Of a stretch of DNA of 45,197 nucleotides, positions 1,899-14,854 are shown one piece after another. The stretch lies in the sequence record PQ476011.1. One strand, written 5' to 3'. The notes beneath the pieces were generated by a model that did no database searches, had not been told where the DNA came from, and saw only the letters and a list, made by a program, of their open reading frames with translations. A program made the translations under genes and the position numbers. Each line of letters starts with the position of its first letter. The stretch's first letter is position 1. Source of the DNA: Escherichia phage PhiNW-E1.

Positions 1899-2644
1899 AA
1901 ACACCTCTGCCAGCGTAAAACCCTCTTAATTCGGTGGAACTCTCACTGAGACAATACCGAGCGAAGCCTGTTGCAATAACAGGAACGTGTAGAGACTAAC
2001 TGTAAGGCCAAGCGGTCTGAAACAGAGGGAGGCGCAAGCCTAAGATATAGTCCGACCTACTAGGTGACTAGTAGAAGTTAAAGTAGCGAATTAACGTAAC
2101 AATTGAAGGGAGTTAAATATGACAGAGCATAAAGTTTATCATATTCGTGTTGTTGGTGAAACTGATGTAATGCAAGGTTATATTGGTGTAACCTCCGATA
2201 TTAAGAAGCGTATGAGAGAGCACAAGTGTGCAGGCCGTCTTTGTGATGGCCGCGAGTACGTTATCTTATTCACTGGTAGCAAAGAAGAGTGTTATGCACT
2301 AGAAGAGAAGCTACGCCCACATGACAACATGTGTTGGAATAAGGGTAAAGGTGGTTATCGCAAAGCAGGTAACATCGAGAAAGGTGAACGCATAAGTATT
2401 GCCACTGAAATCAAGAAAGGACAGCACTTGTCTGTTGCCACTGAGTTCAAGAAAGGCATGACACCTTACAACAAAGGTACTGGCAAAGATTACATATTCA
2501 CTTCTCCAGATGGTGAAGAGTTTCTTGTAACTTGCATTACTGACTTCTGTAAAGAGCACAACCTAACACCTCAGAATATGCGTAAGGTGGCACGTGGTTT
2601 ACGTAAACACCACAAGGGTTGGCTCGCACGTCACGTTCAAACCG
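1899..2644 (+). mobile_element. Group I intron (IA-like core) carrying a homing endonuclease ORF
   Basis: P-like AATTCGGTGGAA 1928-1939; Q-like AATACCGAGC 1953-1962; R-like GTGTAGAGACTAAC 1987-2000; S AAGATATAGTCC 2041-2052; P3 CCCTCT 1921-1926 with AGAGGG 2024-2029; P7 GACTA/TAGTC; omega G at 2644; P10 CCTCT 1904-1908 with GGAGG 2645-2649. Confidence 0.7.
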
Positions 2645-2652
2645 GGAGGTAA
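2119..2652 (+). CDS. GIY-YIG homing endonuclease with NUMOD-like repeats, intron-encoded
   Basis: 177 aa; N-terminal KVYHIRVV...GYIGVT (GIY-YIG-like); repeated IATEIKKGQH / VATEFKKGMTPYNKG segments; RBS AGGGA 2106-2110; stop TAA 2650-2652 lies 8 nt into exon 2. Confidence 0.7.
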   Translation: MTEHKVYHIRVVGETDVMQGYIGVTSDIKKRMREHKCAGRLCDGREYVILFTGSKEECYALEEKLRPHDNMCWNKGKGGYRKAGNIEKGERISIATEIKKGQHLSVATEFKKGMTPYNKGTGKDYIFTSPDGEEFLVTCITDFCKEHNLTPQNMRKVARGLRKHHKGWLARHVQTGR

Positions 2653-3376
2653 GAATGGGGATGAAACGGGTGTGGCTATCGTCTTCCTGCACGGCACATT
2701 CATTTACGTGTATCAGTGCTTCGGTGTGCCAGGCGGATACCGTGAATCGTCCCTGAATCGCATTGTGCAGGCCGCAAAGCAGGCGGGTGTTAAAGAGGTA
2801 TTCATTGAGAAGAACTTTGGTCATGGCGCGTTTGAGGCCGTTATAAAGCCATACTTTGAACGAGAGTGGCCTGTAACTCTGGAAGAGGATTACGCCACAG
2901 GACAGAAAGAGTTGCGTATCATTGAGACGCTGGAGCCACTCATGGCGGCGCACAGGCTCATCTTCAATGCCGAGATGGTCAAGTCTGACCTTGAGTCAGT
3001 ACAGCACTATCCACTTGAACTACGCATGTCCTACAGTCTTTTCAATCAAATGTCGAACATCACGATTGAGAAGAACAGCCTCCGGCACGATGACCGCCTA
3101 GACGCCCTGTATGGCGCTATACGGCAATTAACTTCTCAGATAGACTATGACGAGGTTACACGGATTAATCGCCTCAGAGCGCAGGAGATGCGCGATTACA
3201 TCCATGCTATGAATACACCTCATCTACGCAGGGCAATGCTATATGGAGATTACGGTACTGAGCGAAGAGTGACCAACACTTCCGTAGCGATGCAGCAGCG
3301 AGTTTACGGGCAGAACTACCGAAATAAATCGGCAAGCAGAAATACACTTTCTGCAAGGATTTCAAGGACTTATTAA
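2645..3376 (+). CDS. Terminase large subunit, exon 2 (nuclease domain, begins GGKNGDETGVAIV)
   Basis: Frame continues from exon 1 when 1899-2644 is removed, giving ...YIDPAG|GGKNGDETG..., comparable to the T7 gp19 segment DPSGRGKDETG as I recall it; the ORF-track Met at 2594 is intronic. Confidence 0.75.
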   Translation, partial: GGKNGDETGVAIVFLHGTFIYVYQCFGVPGGYRESSLNRIVQAAKQAGVKEVFIEKNFGHGAFEAVIKPYFEREWPVTLEEDYATGQKELRIIETLEPLMAAHRLIFNAEMVKSDLESVQHYPLELRMSYSLFNQMSNITIEKNSLRHDDRLDALYGAIRQLTSQIDYDEVTRINRLRAQEMRDYIHAMNTPHLRRAMLYGDYGTERRVTNTSVAMQQRVYGQNYRNKSASRNTLSARISRTY

Positions 3377-5066: not shown

Positions 5067-5145
5067 ATGAGATAGTGCCGTTCTTTTGAGCGGCCTATTA
5101 CTAGCCAATCTTCATAGGGAGGGTTGGGAAGTAATAGGAGAGTAT

Positions 5146-8113: not shown

Positions 8114-8961
8114 AGGTTAATATCTTAGTGTACACAAGGGCAGACTTAGGTTTGCTCTTAGTGTAATCCAAGGAGGTAACATGCAAGAGGAGAATTGGGA
8201 TGTGTAATGTTGGATATGGAGAAGGTTGAACCTTAGTGTTGTACAAGGATTAACCAAAGTAAAAATTTTGATATAGGCGTGTGTGAGGTGTCTCGCCCTC
8301 GCCCTCGCCGGATTTCCCCCATATGGGGCCGCGCTGCGGTTGGCTTGGGAATTGGGCTAGGCTGGTCCGTCTTCGACGGGTGGCCTAGGGCTTGCCGAAG
8401 TCTGCTCTTAGTGGCTGCACAAGGAGAACGCCTAGGAAGCGCTAGGGCACGCCTTAGTATTGGACAAGGTGATTGCCTTAGTGCAACCGCTTAGGGCTTA
8501 CACAGGCCGTTTTAGGGCCATTCCTGAGCATTTGACAGGGTGAGCGTGGGTTGGCTATCTGTTCGTTTCGCTCCACTACGTTACGCTACACTCACCGCGC
8601 TTGTGTACCTTAGGTTATTCCTTGATGGATAGCTTAGGTTAGCCTTAGTGGACTACCTTAGTTAAAGCCTTAGTGCTTAGCTTAGTATCAGCTTAGTAGT
8701 GTACCTTAGTCAGACTTAGTGTCTTCTCTTAGTGATTGCACATGCAAGCATGTAAGATGCCATTAGGTCGCGGTCGGTAGACCGCTAAAGAAAGAGAATA
8801 GTAATAAGATGCAGTAGGAGGAACACCAGAAACCTAGCCAACCTAGTCTATCCTAGCTCTGTATCTATTGCTTTCCTTAGTCTCACATGTTAGACAACCT
8901 ATGTTTATCTTAGTAGTTGTGACATGTATCACATAAATAATCTATCTTAGTGAAACTTAGT
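8114..8961. repeat. Array of about 25 CTTAGT-type short direct repeats in an ORF-poor region (presumed genome terminus / packaging region)
   Basis: Five longer units CTTAGTR-N4-6-CAAGG at 8114-8129, 8147-8163, 8232-8248, 8407-8424, 8458-8474; a GC-rich island at about 8285-8600 holds CTCGCC x3 (8292-8309) and palindrome CCCCCATATGGGG (8316-8328). Confidence 0.6.
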
Positions 8962-8962
8962 G

Positions 8963-8991
8963 TTGACATAGGCAATCAACTGGTATACATT
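8963..8991 (+). promoter_or_regulatory. Host sigma70-type early promoter
   Basis: TTGACA 8963-8968, 17-bp spacer, TACATT 8986-8991. Confidence 0.5.
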
Positions 8992-9141
8992 AGCAATCAC
9001 TGAGACGGACCTAGCAAGCTGTCTCAGGTTATAAGCAGGAGAATTGATGCGTAAGCCATAGCTAGTGGATGTAGTCGCATGAAGGCTTGAGTAAGGGGCC
9101 GCTTAATACCTTCTTCCTCTGGAGACAACGCTTATAACACT

Positions 9142-9154
9142 GCTCTTTAACAAT
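9142..9154 (+). promoter_or_regulatory. Conserved early-region motif GCTCTTTAACAAT, copy 1 (candidate RNase III processing site)
   Basis: One of four copies of a 13-mer in intergenic early-region positions; the same motif is in the T7 gene 0.3 leader as I recall it. Confidence 0.4.
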
Positions 9155-9212
9155 CTGCTTAGTGTAACCTATGTATGCCGTGGTTAATTACTTATTGAAT
9201 GAAGGATTAACT

Positions 9213-9440
9213 ATGAAAGTACAAGTAAAAGCGTACAACATGCCAGTTGATGAGATTCAGCACTTCCTCGATAAGGGTTATGACTTATGTAAGATGCGCA
9301 CACCAGATAACTATGACTACTCACCTAAATATCTGCATTATATTGATCTTAAGATGGGTAAGAAGTTAGTTATTACAGGTACTGCATATAACCGCATTAT
9401 CAAAGTTCTTAAAGAGGGTGCTAATCATGACATTAAATAA
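9213..9440 (+). CDS. Early hypothetical protein
   Basis: 75 aa from ATG 9213 (RBS AAGGA 9203-9207); first ORF after the early promoter. Confidence 0.5.
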   Translation: MKVQVKAYNMPVDEIQHFLDKGYDLCKMRTPDNYDYSPKYLHYIDLKMGKKLVITGTAYNRIIKVLKEGANHDIK

Positions 9441-9606
9441 CCGTGAACTGCACGTTATCTTCACCTTGTTATGTTACATGATTCGTAACAACGAATTACT
9501 TACAGATGATGAGTTAGCCTTGTATCACCGCTTTCTTAACGAAGGTTGGACCGATATAGTTAATCAATACCGTAACATGATAGATGAGTTGAGGGAGGGT
9601 AAATAA
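9427..9606 (+). CDS. Early hypothetical protein
   Basis: 59 aa; compact overlap with the upstream gene. Confidence 0.45.
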   Translation: MTLNNRELHVIFTLLCYMIRNNELLTDDELALYHRFLNEGWTDIVNQYRNMIDELREGK

Positions 9607-9830
9607 TGTATCAACATGAGGTATTCTTTGAATCAGCTAGCGAAGCTATTCGCTTCCGTGATGATATGATGCAAGCTGGTGTAGGCGTTGATGTGTATCA
9701 CTATTTGATAGACTACGACACTGAATATCACCGAGTTACCTTAGTATCTGAGTATGACAACCAAGTCATTACTGAGTATCTAGGTAGTGAAGATTATGAT
9801 TACGATGAAGTAATCACGACAAATCTCTAA
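9606..9830 (+). CDS. Early hypothetical acidic protein
   Basis: 74 aa; RBS GAGGGAGGG 9590-9598; Asp/Glu/Tyr-rich. Confidence 0.55.
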   Translation: MYQHEVFFESASEAIRFRDDMMQAGVGVDVYHYLIDYDTEYHRVTLVSEYDNQVITEYLGSEDYDYDEVITTNL

Positions 9831-9838
9831 ATTAACTA

Positions 9839-9867
9839 TTGACAACCACGGCATACAAGGTTACATT
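9839..9867 (+). promoter_or_regulatory. Host sigma70-type promoter
   Basis: TTGACA 9839-9844, 17-bp spacer, TACATT 9862-9867; same -10 context (TACATTA) as the 8963 promoter. Confidence 0.45.
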
Positions 9868-9900
9868 AAGCATCAAGACGGCGACGTCTTTAAACATCAC

Positions 9901-9913
9901 GCTCTTTAACAAT
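9901..9913 (+). promoter_or_regulatory. Conserved motif GCTCTTTAACAAT, copy 2
   Basis: Preceded by hairpin AAGACG-GCGA-CGTCTT. Confidence 0.4.
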
Positions 9914-10057
9914 AGAGATTAGGCCGGGAGTATCGGTGTGAGGGACAAGGAGGCTTTCCCACAATTAAACTGGTGGCAAAAGGATTGCCCAGCTTTATAG
10001 CCCAGTTATGGATAGCAATAGCGTAAGGATGGCAGCACACCCGCGAGTCTAATCTCT
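9914..10057 (+). ncRNA. ORF-less structured element between motif copies 2 and 3 (candidate small RNA or processing substrate)
   Basis: 144 nt with no ORF over 15 codons; ends pair as AGAGATTAG (9914-9922) with CTAATCTCT (10049-10057); internal hairpins. Confidence 0.3.
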
Positions 10058-10058
10058 A

Positions 10059-10071
10059 GCTCTTTAACAAT
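10059..10071 (+). promoter_or_regulatory. Conserved motif GCTCTTTAACAAT, copy 3
   Basis: Immediately 3' of the closing stem of the 9914-10057 element. Confidence 0.4.
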
Positions 10072-10116
10072 CTGGTTTGTGTCTTGATAGGCTTACTAAC
10101 AGAAAGGTAAATTATC

Positions 10117-10284
10117 ATGGAAACTTTAATCGTTACCACTACAATCAACGGCGTAAGTATCAGCATAACTAAGTATTCTTCCGAAGAGTATGAAGTGAAT
10201 CACGGAATAGCTGCTATGGTGTATGACAACTTGGCAGATGCCGTGGAGCATTGGATACAGTCATGTAAGGCTGCAATTAAGTAG
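10117..10284 (+). CDS. Early hypothetical protein (55 aa)
   Basis: Hand-translated; RBS AAAGG 10103-10107; flanked by 9-nt inverted repeat CTTGATAGG (10083-10091) / CCTATCAAG (10310-10318). Confidence 0.45.
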   Translation: METLIVTTTINGVSISITKYSSEEYEVNHGIAAMVYDNLADAVEHWIQSCKAAIK

Positions 10285-10329
10285 GAAAGATAAGGCTGGC
10301 ACTAGCCAGCCTATCAAGGCACAAGCCAC

Positions 10330-10342
10330 GCTCTTTAACAAT
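10330..10342 (+). promoter_or_regulatory. Conserved motif GCTCTTTAACAAT, copy 4
   Basis: Preceded by hairpin GGCTGGC-ACTA-GCCAGCC (10294-10311); lies in the leader of the ocr-like gene. Confidence 0.4.
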
Positions 10343-10438
10343 ATGGGTAGTCGCTTCTTAGTCTGGATAGGTTAAACCTAGGAGATTCTCTTGAGTCTCC
10401 TATAATGTAACCTAACTAACTAAATGAGGATTAATAAC

Positions 10439-10795
10439 ATGGCTATGTCTAATAAGACTTACTCTCAGGTTTACAACACCGCTCATGCTGCATTAGTTGA
10501 ACGTATCTGGGATGATGCTATTGATTGTATCGATAACGCACATGATGCAATCCATGAGGTGGCGGATAGTGCTGTACCAATCTATTATGCTGACACCTTC
10601 TCGGTGATGGCCAGTGAAGGCATCGACCACTTCTTCGAGGATTCTGGCTTAATGCCAGACACTAAGGATGTGACGGTCGTACTACAAGCCCGTATTTATG
10701 AACAACTCACCATTGATTTATGGGAACGTGTTCAAGATATGATTGATGCGTACATCGATTCCGCTGAGGATTCAGAAGAAGAGGAGGAAGAATAA
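10439..10795 (+). CDS. ocr: Ocr-like DNA mimic, anti-restriction protein (T7 gp0.3 homolog)
   Basis: 118 aa; MAMSNKTY...[60 protein letters not shown] plus poly-Glu tail matches T7 Ocr as I recall it; RBS GAGGA 10425-10429. Confidence 0.8.
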
Positions 10796-12226: not shown

Positions 12227-14854
12227 ATGCAAGACCTACACGCTATTCAACTTCAACTTGAAGAAGAAATGTTTAACGGCGGTATCCGTCGCTTTGAAGC
12301 GGACCAACAACGCCAGATTGCATCCGGTAATGAATCAGACACGGCATGGAATCGCCGTTTATTGTCCGAGTTAATCGCGCCAATGGCTGAAGGTATTCAG
12401 GCATACAAGGAAGAGTATGAAGGTAAAAGAGGCCGTGCACCGCGTGCATTAGCTTTCATTAACTGCGTAGAAAACGAAGTGGCAGCATATATCACGATGA
12501 AAATCGTTATGGATATGCTGAATACAGACGTTACCTTACAAGCAATCGCTATGAATGTAGCGGACCGCATCGAAGACCAAGTACGTTTTAGCAAGCTGGA
12601 AGGTCACGCAGCTAAGTACTTTGAGAAAGTGAAGAAGTCGCTTAAGGCTAGCAAGACTAAATCTTATCGTCATGCGCACAACGTAGCGGTAGTAGCTGAG
12701 AAATCTGTTGCTGACCGTGACGCGGATTTCTCCCGTTGGGAGGCATGGCCTAAAGATACCTTGCTACAAATCGGTATGACCTTGCTAGAAATACTGGAAA
12801 ATAGTGTATTCTTCAATGGTCAGCCTGTCTTTCTTCGCACCTTGCGCACTAATGGTGGCAAGCATGGCGTTTACTACTTACAGACCAGTGAACACGTAGG
12901 GGAATGGATTACAGCATTTAAAGAACATGTAGCGCAACTTAGCCCGGCTTATGCACCTTGCGTTATACCTCCTCGTCCGTGGGTTTCTCCTTTTAATGGC
13001 GGTTTTCACACTGAGAAGGTAGCAAGTCGTGTGCGTCTTGTTAAAGGCAGCCGTGAACACGTCCGCAAGCTGACCAAAAAGCAAATGCCAGCGGTTTACA
13101 AGGCTGTTAACGCTTTGCAGGCGACTAAATGGCAGGTTAACAAGGAAGTTTTACAGGTTGTTGAGGACGTAATACGGCTTGATTTAGGCTATGGCGTACC
13201 TTCCTTCAAACCACTCATCGACCGCGAGAACAAGCCAGCTAATCCGGTGCCGTTAGAGTTCCAGCACCTGCGAGGCCGTGAACTGAAAGAAATGTTAACA
13301 CCGGAACAATGGCAAGCCTTCATCAACTGGAAAGGTGAATGCACCAAGCTGTATACCGCTGAGACTAAGCGCGGCAGCAAATCGGCGGCGACCGTCCGCA
13401 TGGTAGGGCAGGCCCGTAAATACAGCCAATTTGACGCAATATACTTCGTGTATGCTCTGGACAGCCGCAGCCGCGTCTACGCGCAATCTAGCACGCTCTC
13501 TCCGCAATCAAACGACTTAGGCAAGGCATTGCTCCGTTTTACCGAAGGGCAGCGTCTTGATAGCGCTGAGGCGCTTAAGTGGTTTTTGGTGAACGGGGCT
13601 AATAACTGGGGTTGGGATAAGAAAACTTTTGACGTGCGCACCGCTAACGTGCTGGATAGTGAATTTCAAGACATGTGCCGCGACATTGCAGCGGATCCGC
13701 TGACCTTCACTCAATGGGTAAATGCCGACTCCCCTTACGGCTTCCTTGCATGGTGCTTTGAATATGCGCGTTATCTGGATGCACTGGATGAAGGCACGCA
13801 AGACCAATTCATGACGCACCTCCCAGTCCATCAAGATGGTAGTTGTTCTGGTATCCAGCACTACAGTGCTATGCTACGCGATGCAGTAGGTGCGAAAGCG
13901 GTAAACCTTAAGCCCTCTGACTCACCTCAAGATATTTATGGTGCCGTTGCGCAGGTAGTAATTCAGAAGAATTATGCATACATGAATGCAGAGGATGCGG
14001 AAACCTTCACTTCTGGCAGCGTGACTTTAACAGGTGCAGAACTTCGTAGCATGGCTAGTGCGTGGGATATGATAGGAATCACTCGCGGCCTGACCAAAAA
14101 GCCTGTAATGACACTACCTTATGGCAGCACACGTCTAACCTGCCGTGAATCAGTGATTGATTATATCGTTGATTTGGAAGAAAAAGAGGCCCAACGGGCT
14201 ATTGCGGAAGGGCGTACCGCCAATCCTGTACATCCTTTTGATAATGACCGCAAAGACAGCCTGACACCTAGCGCAGCTTATAACTATATGACAGCTTTAA
14301 TCTGGCCTTCTATTTCGGAAGTGGTTAAAGCTCCTATAGTGGCAATGAAAATGATTCGTCAGCTTGCACGTTTCGCAGCTAAAAGAAACGAAGGCTTAGA
14401 ATATCCCTTACCAACTGGCTTCATCTTGCAACAAAAGATAATGGCTACCGATATGCTCCGCGTATCCACTTGCTTGATGGGTGAAATCAAGATGAGTCTC
14501 CAGATTGAAACAGATGTAGTTGATGAAACGGCAATGATGGGTGCGGCTGCCCCTAACTTCGTCCATGGTCACGATGCTAGCCACCTGATTCTGACTGTAT
14601 GTGACCTAGTGGATAAAGGTATTACATCCATTGCAGTCATCCATGATTCTTTCGGTACTCATGCAGGACGTACCGCAGACCTGCGGGATAGCTTAAGGGA
14701 AGAAATGGTTAAGATGTATCAAAACCATAATGCCCTGCAAAACCTGCTAGATGTGCACGAAGAGCGTTGGTTAGTAGACACCGGAATCCAAGTACCAGAG
14801 CAAGGAGAGTTTGACCTTAACGAAATCTTAGTTTCAGACTATTGTTTCGCATAA
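12227..14854 (+). CDS. Single-subunit DNA-dependent RNA polymerase (T7 gene 1 family)
   Basis: 875 aa; RBS AGGAG; C-terminal ...AVIHDSFGT...ILVSDYCFA matches the T7 RNAP C-terminus (HDSFGT motif C, FAFA-type end). Confidence 0.95.

Follow-up and report, generated by a model that had tools for sequence, protein, structure and literature searches.

In the early region of Escherichia phage PhiNW-E1 (sequence record PQ476011.1), a 13-nucleotide (nt) sequence, GCTCTTTAACAAT, occurs four times ahead of the anti-restriction gene ocr, and a 144-nt segment without an open reading frame (ORF) lies between the second and third copies. Judged by its sequence, the 13-mer is a boxA of the type found in ribosomal RNA (rRNA) operons (rrn), that is, a NusB/S10 loading site, and not an RNase III signal. 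Each boxA is followed directly by one strand of an RNA helix whose partner strand lies just ahead of the next boxA. We propose that the early operon upstream of ocr is probably organized as a series of rrn-type boxA modules, each with its own enclosing helix, and that the 144-nt segment is an optional module of this design. The whole 45,197-nt stretch of DNA that was analyzed is referred to here as the window, and coordinates are those of the window unless stated otherwise.

The repeated 13-mer and the rrn boxA

The window contains exactly four copies of the 13-mer, all of which are intergenic and on the + strand (Table 1), compared with a chance expectation of 0.01 copies; a count of four was reached in none of 100 dinucleotide shuffles. 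The scan was also made allowing up to two mismatches. The initial annotation of this region had likewise listed four intergenic copies on the transcribed strand, and the exact scan, the ORF positions, and the shuffles all agree with it. Every copy is identical to the boxA of the Escherichia coli rrnB leader over all 13 nt, differs by one base from the boxA of the 16S-23S spacer, and fits the gammaproteobacterial consensus for Nus factors, GYTCTTTAANA (PMC5725501). The rrn version of boxA is bound by NusB:NusE with an affinity of about 8 nM, versus 80 to 90 nM for lambda nut (PMC2800207).

The same 13-mer, which the initial annotation had placed in the leader of T7 gene 0.3, is indeed found there, at T7 nt 813 to 825, between promoter A3 (750) and the ATG of gene 0.3 (925). 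This copy has been termed a boxA anti-termination element; when it is mutated, the host polymerase inhibitor Gp2 becomes dispensable (PMC3709561, citing Savalia et al. 2010). Among 29 related loci anchored on ocr, 26 carry a consensus boxA upstream of this gene, mostly 99 to 114 nt away, with diverged flanks. The variants seen in related loci stay inside the consensus, and only 2 matches to it were found on the opposite strand in 395 kb of such loci. T7-like phages have one boxA and Vectrevirus phages have two to five, while SP6, which belongs to a different genus, has two plus a degenerate third; five copies, the highest count seen, are present in phage ULINTec4.

The four boxAs of PhiNW-E1 lie on the sense strand downstream of sigma-70-like promoters, and in a purely thermodynamic prediction their pairing probabilities are 0.26 to 0.40, versus a transcript mean of 0.62. 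We identify the 13-mer as boxA because of its identity to the rrnB element, its fit to the Nus consensus, the description of the T7 copy as an anti-termination element, and its conservation across loci. A short hairpin with a GCGA loop precedes the second copy in a boxB-like position and is not universal among the relatives. A separate observation concerns TTCTTAAAGAGGGTG (positions 9406 to 9420, inside the first early gene), which is complementary at 13 of 15 positions to CACGCTCTTTAACAA, the sequence of boxA copies 2 and 4 plus their 5' flank; this could be due to chance or represent an "anti-boxA" sequence.

Helices enclosing the early modules

Each boxA is followed within 0 to 2 nt by the 5' strand of a helix, the 3' strand of which is located just ahead of the next boxA. 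Helix T1 consists of 29 base pairs (bp) with one bulged A and encloses three small genes (9213 to 9830). Helix T2 consists of 20 bp and encloses a gene for a 55-amino-acid protein; it contains the CTTGATAGG/CCTATCAAG inverted repeat that had initially been noted as bracketing this gene and that proved to extend to a 20-bp pairing. Both strands of T1 and of T2 sit in untranslated sequence. The pairing energies are -48.1 kcal/mol for T1 and -39.2 kcal/mol for T2, values that were not equaled in any of 500 shuffles and that are far beyond those of non-cognate pairings.

Both helices recur in SP6. Across the relatives, including SP6, T1 is 98.9% paired with 2 compensatory pairs, and T2 is 96.1% paired across relatives with 4 pairs altered on both sides; in each case the score was reached by none of 500 shuffles. 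In SP6 the bulge of T1 is filled, which gives a perfect 30-bp duplex. In two relatives (L037 and L063, the latter being K1E record KY435490), T2 has lost one base per strand at matching positions, and for the K1E record the cause is either the compensatory deletion of a base pair or a pair of sequencing errors in homopolymers. The G-U wobbles in T1 and T2 are compatible only with RNA made from the + strand. Thus, the helices are maintained by compensatory change, and with 29 to 30 bp (T1) and 20 bp (T2) they span the approximately two helical turns (at least 20 bp of double-stranded RNA) expected of an RNase III substrate; by analogy, cleavage of the phage helices by this enzyme is likely. The likely substrates would be the helices that start 0 to 2 nt after the boxAs and the local hairpin with an internal loop that follows copy 4. 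This hairpin is built like that of the T7 gene 0.3 leader, and compensatory changes are found in its upper stem in one relative (L019). In T7, RNase III site R0.3 lies near nt 890 and is not listed in the tables of the T7 record. A search for long-range helices of the T1/T2 type downstream of ocr found none, so that the modular design does not extend beyond the region ahead of this gene.

This geometry matches that of the E. coli rrn leader. In rrnB, the 5' strand of the long-range 16S helix begins 1 nt downstream of the boxA 13-mer; its partner lies 5 nt beyond the 3' end of 16S rRNA; the helix around 16S rRNA is the primary RNase III site. According to a published model, boxA is tethered to the modified polymerase, and the adjacent strand is in this way delivered to its distant partner, forming the RNase III site (PMC8632103). 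The phage shares with the rrn leader the identical 13-mer, a helix 5' strand 1 to 2 nt after boxA with its partner just past the payload, a new boxA after each helix (as the spacer boxA follows 16S in rrn), and a hairpin ahead of boxA copy 2, as with the rrn boxB. It differs in that the payload is small translated genes or the 144-nt ORF-less RNA instead of rRNA, in that the helices are 20 to 30 bp and the modules 0.15 to 0.75 kb long, and in that no clear boxC is seen.

Other phage systems show part of this arrangement. As in the T7 gene 0.3 leader, the 13-mer lies 109 to 114 nt upstream of ocr and is followed by an internal-loop hairpin; however, T7-like phages have a single boxA and local hairpins only, whereas here there are four boxAs (up to five in relatives), each with a long-range helix. 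The nut sites of lambda (boxA plus boxB plus N) likewise rely on a phage boxA RNA through which the host RNA polymerase becomes resistant to termination; for PhiNW-E1 this effect is proposed by analogy. In contrast to lambda, the boxA is the high-affinity rrn version and not the weaker one, no N-like protein or conserved boxB is evident, and the order is hairpin and then boxA, as in rrn. T4-type phages carry promoter/stem-loop (PeSL) regulatory cassettes, reportedly described by Arbiol et al. in 2010. In these, too, small accessory early genes have short regulatory repeats on their flanks, and the repeats fall at mosaic boundaries, but the PeSL unit is an early promoter plus a terminator-like stem-loop, whereas in PhiNW-E1 a host anti-termination signal is combined with a module-enclosing helix.

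We infer the following sequence of events by analogy with rrn. The boxA RNA would bind host NusB-S10 and nucleate a Nus/SuhB anti-termination complex on host RNA polymerase. Each module would be read in the order boxA, helix 5' strand (0 to 2 nt on), payload, helix 3' strand, short spacer, and next boxA, with a payload that consists of one to three small genes or has no ORF. The boxA-bound complex may guard untranslated RNA, such as the 242 nt between the start of P2 transcription and the ATG at 10117, against Rho, and it may hold the helix 5' strand close to the RNA exit channel while the partner strand is still to be made. RNase III would then cut the completed helix and free the module with paired ends, and the next boxA would reload the Nus/SuhB complex. 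The 144-nt segment would in this manner be freed as an RNA of approximately 145 nt, and it would be gained or lost via recombination between the flanking boxA repeats.

Several points weigh against the modular model. Nus-factor binding and RNase III cleavage are predictions from sequence and analogy, and the need for anti-termination is not self-evident, since the early genes are translated. The 3' strand of T1 overlaps promoter P2, which confounds the conservation of this strand; one relative (L057) is without it, and T2 is missing from the global minimum free energy (MFE) fold. The closing helix of the 144-nt segment, with its approximately 11 bp, is shorter than a canonical RNase III substrate; the fold of the segment as a whole is just marginally better than those of shuffled sequences (z = -1.86; 12 of 200 shuffles); and only three alleles exist, which is too few for a covariation test.

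Table 1. Features of the early region of the PhiNW-E1 window (UTR, untranslated region)
Feature	Coordinates	Strand	Evidence or remarks
boxA copy 1	9142-9154	+	exact match
boxA copy 2	9901-9913	+	exact match
boxA copy 3	10059-10071	+	exact match
boxA copy 4, placed like the single boxA of T7 (109 nt upstream of ocr)	10330-10342	+	exact match
6-bp hairpin with GCGA (GNRA) loop, 10 nt upstream of boxA copy 2, boxB-like position	9875-9890	+	sequence, MFE fold
Helix T1, 5' strand (5' UTR of three-gene module)	9156-9185	+	in global MFE fold
Helix T1, 3' strand (overlaps spacer and -10 of P2)	9844-9872	+	
Helix T2, 5' strand (5' UTR of 55-amino-acid gene)	10073-10092	+	
Helix T2, 3' strand (ends 1 nt before boxA copy 4)	10309-10328	+	
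144-nt ORF-less accessory module	9914-10057	+	closing helix 9914-9924 with 10047-10057
Local hairpin with internal loop after boxA copy 4 (core 10368-10414)	10354-10429	+	R0.3-like, built like T7 gene 0.3 leader hairpin
Early promoter P1, sigma-70 type (TTGACA-17-TACATT)	8963-8991	+	10/12 matches
ORF-less P1 leader domain, 9-bp closing stem GTTATAAGC/GCTTATAAC, ends 3 nt 5' of boxA copy 1	9028-9138	+	predicted folds
Three small early genes inside helix T1	9213-9440, 9418-9606, 9606-9830	+	phrog_19860, phrog_9275, phrog_6403 (unknown function)
Promoter P2, sigma-70 type (TTGACA-17-TACATT)	9839-9867	+	kept in SP6 as TTGACT..TACATT
55-amino-acid early gene inside helix T2	10117-10284	+	weak phrog_9374 match (unknown function)
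ocr, gp0.3-like DNA mimic, anti-restriction	10439-10795	+	Pfam PF08684, E = 4.9e-40
Phage RNA polymerase gene	12227-14854		

The 144-nt segment and the competing explanations

The second and third boxAs are spaced 158 nt apart, which corresponds to the 13-mer, the 144-nt segment, and one extra A at position 10058. The ends of the segment, AGAGATTAG and CTAATCTCT, pair with each other; the 9-bp closing stem that had been proposed extends to a helix of approximately 11 bp with an irregular continuation. Its energy of -28.4 kcal/mol was reached by 4 of 500 shuffles and by 0.8% of the genomic background, and the helix is present in the predicted global fold of the early transcript. In agreement with the description of the segment as ORF-less, its + strand contains no ORF of at least 21 codons with an ATG, GTG, or TTG start. 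A conserved ORF across the segment in homologous phages, which had been named as evidence that would speak against the initial proposal, was not seen: the relatives either carry the ORF-less segment at an identity of at least 99% or lack it. In one relative an antisense ORF of 44 amino acids is annotated, a candidate that we rejected, as all genes and promoters of the region are on the + strand.

The segment is found in only 8 near-identical phage records, with 99.3 to 100% identity, and the neighboring modules differ among them. In phage ACG-C91, P2, one boxA, and the 55-amino-acid gene follow each other directly, and the window differs from this arrangement by exactly 158 nt, that is, the segment plus one boxA. 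Judged by the exact indel, the 8 phages, and the varied neighbors, the segment behaves like an optional module for which boxA is the point of exchange. More generally, near-identical phages differ in module content exactly at boxA boundaries, and hybrid modules are present in fTuEco01 and SHAK7704.

Beyond this locus, the segment appears to be an orphan. Searches of phage records with blastn and tblastn (E values up to 10) returned only the same locus in the 8 phages. None was found in complete E. coli genomes and plasmids, in JGI metagenomes (with a 22-mer probe), or in 185,579 species genomes (with two probes), only chance matches were obtained in IMG/VR with a closing-stem pattern, and there is no internal paralogue within the window. 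A search of positions 8900 to 10500 against Rfam at gathering thresholds and at E values up to 10 gave no family, two chance-level matches aside, and ARAGORN predicted neither a transfer RNA (tRNA) nor a transfer-messenger RNA in the region.

Several other explanations have to be considered for the 13-mer. As it adjoins the hairpin of the T7 gene 0.3 leader and borders every helix, it might itself be, or belong to, an RNase III recognition or processing signal, and the four copies were initially presented as candidate processing sites. One part of that proposal holds, in that the motifs do border processing-type RNA structures. However, RNase III recognizes double-stranded RNA, while the 13-mer lies outside all of the helices, with a predicted pairing below the average; it is also identical to the NusB/S10 site of rrn, and its T7 copy is described as an anti-terminator, so that we regard a processing signal within the 13-mer itself as very unlikely. 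Alternatively, the motif could act mainly as DNA homology for the swapping, gain, and loss of early cassettes, comparable to the cassettes of T4-type phages, with its role in RNA being secondary. Module differences that fall exactly at boxA, the hybrid modules, and the clean 158-nt indel between two boxAs are in line with this idea, but the identity to the host rrn boxA, the strand specificity, the single T7-like copy, and the T7 genetics are left unexplained by it. We consider this explanation unlikely, and a role in recombination is best seen as a by-product of the repeated boxAs and not as an alternative to boxA modules.

With respect to the 144-nt segment, a decayed or miniature protein-coding cassette instead of an RNA gene is a genuine, if less than even, possibility. 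A perfect AAGGAGG is present at positions 9947 to 9953, 34 to 40 nt after boxA, where the coding modules carry their Shine-Dalgarno sequence, and 10 nt further on, ATT AAA, one substitution away from ATG AAA, opens 20 codons (IKLVAKGLPSFIAQLWIAIA; ATT at 9964 to TAA at 10023). An overlapping 20-codon ORF (GTG at 9938 to TAG at 10000) follows a GGGAG sequence, and in its frame the C33T allele is a synonymous change. On the other hand, a canonical start at good spacing is absent, and tblastn returned no protein homologue. The GGGAG site is lost in the G15C allele, the neighboring genes are much longer than either ORF, and three alleles are too few to show coding selection. The 9-bp terminal inverted repeats and the flanking direct repeats are also what one would see in a miniature inverted-repeat transposable element (MITE), with boxA as a 13-bp target duplication. 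Yet the gene modules are flanked by boxA as well, and no other copy was found in the E. coli genomes and plasmids, in phage records beyond this locus, in IMG/VR, in the metagenomes, or in the 185,579 species genomes; because of this lack of further copies, the MITE reading was rejected as extremely improbable. Within the framework of boxA modules, the segment could about as well be a processed small RNA as a coding cassette, with the likelihood left by these two going to a functionless filler that merely obeys the module design. In a bolder version of the modular model, the early operon of SP6/K1E-like phages would be a working imitation of an rRNA operon, with every accessory gene module wrapped in the manner of 16S rRNA. 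The host complex, reloaded for each module, would both accelerate and shield transcription and hand over the helix strands for cutting during transcription, and the 144-nt module would yield a small RNA that is abundant early in infection, such as a decoy or an anti-defense RNA beside ocr. This version is conceivable but in our opinion rather doubtful.

Other ORF-less segments next to boxA sequences were noticed in the course of this work. In marine and aquatic T7-like contigs (L066, L067, L068, L075, and L069), two boxAs 139 nt apart surround an ORF-less, stem-closed segment, the closing stem of which begins directly after the first boxA and is compensatory between two variants, GGATCATCT/AGATGATC versus GGATCACTT/AAGTGATC. 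A similar two-boxA arrangement of 154 nt is present in L064. In two metagenomic contigs, L071 (positions approximately 1796 to 2410) and L108, GCTCTTTAACAA motifs lie in between tRNA genes (Tyr, Cys, and Asn), and a closing AGCGGTCC/GGACCGCT pairing is present in one of the segments that the motif flanks; the arrangement resembles an array of noncoding RNAs punctuated by boxA. Together with the P1 leader domain, the marine 139-nt segments and the tRNA array support ORF-less modules as a wider theme. A metagenome scan for two boxAs separated by 125 to 155 nt gave mostly unrelated matches, such as repeat proteins and CRISPR-like arrays, and only a few relevant loci. Eight loci (L070, L074, L080, L091, L096, L105, L109, and L116) contain long regular arrays with up to 67 copies of a boxA-like 12-mer per locus; the 12-mer is part of the repeat unit, ...GTTGTGATTTGCTTTCAAATTATCATGTAGCTTAGCTCTTTAACAAC, and unique spacers separate the repeats. 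These look like CRISPR arrays unrelated to the phage boxA modules.

Significance and other features of the window

By sequence, the window is a circularly permuted genome of a Vectrevirus (K1E/K1-5 group, Autographiviridae), which is SP6-like, and K1E/K1-5-type coliphages align to the 1.55-kb region at 95 to 99% identity. The promoter repeat of the phage RNA polymerase, ATTTACTGGACACTATAGAAG, has zero occurrences between positions 5072 and 14945, and the region has two sigma-70-type promoters; the motif region is therefore early and dependent on host RNA polymerase. The closest relative (L007; OR594181, vB_EcoM_SHAK7704) is an UNVERIFIED record filed under Studiervirinae/Kayfunavirus that is a Vectrevirus by sequence, and the feature coordinates of this record do not match the early genes.

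Anti-termination via boxA is regarded as a mechanism of rRNA operons and lambdoid phages, with a few cellular mRNA targets. While boxA itself is textbook knowledge and the boxA of T7 was already known, we believe that the repeated boxAs with module-enclosing, covarying helices and the match to the rrn leader geometry are new. A boxA in SP6/K1-5-type phages is not mentioned in searchable open papers, a search that does not extend to the SP6 and K1-5 genome papers. If the modular model is correct, a lytic phage of the T7 supergroup has taken over the whole rrn leader design, boxA plus a processing helix around the payload, and employs it several times for modules that code for proteins. This would provide a compact natural system for testing the long-proposed "delivery" model, in which boxA tethering brings together the distant helix strands for RNase III. 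The passage of host polymerase across untranslated stretches of 150 to 250 nt without Rho termination, and its quick arrival at the phage RNA polymerase gene, would be explained as well. The repeated boxAs would in addition account for the cassette-like gain and loss of small early genes beside ocr, a place where anti-defense genes tend to accumulate. In practical terms, boxA sites should be marked by annotators, and the module design could be used for the insertion of payloads into SP6/K1-type phages. The 144-nt segment is a narrow orphan within this picture, and the mechanism is directly testable.

Two further features of the window were noticed. A group I intron (Rfam RF00028, 61 bits; positions 1826 to 2074, + strand) interrupts the large terminase gene, with ORFs at 693 to 1949, 2119 to 2652, and 2594 to 3376. 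The exon downstream of the intron carries the RNaseH-like domain of the T7 terminase, and the ORF that follows this exon has weak GIY-YIG and NUMOD matches and probably encodes a homing endonuclease. Finally, a palindrome of approximately 19 nt, TGTCTCACATGTGAGACA, is present in eight copies (8879, 14928, 15119, 16338, 17906, 19301, 24360, and 40803). Several of these are located directly upstream of promoters for the phage polymerase (14928/14945, 15119/15139, and 24360/24390), and one lies just upstream of the early promoters; the palindromes could serve as hairpin terminators, as processing sites, or for the binding of a protein.

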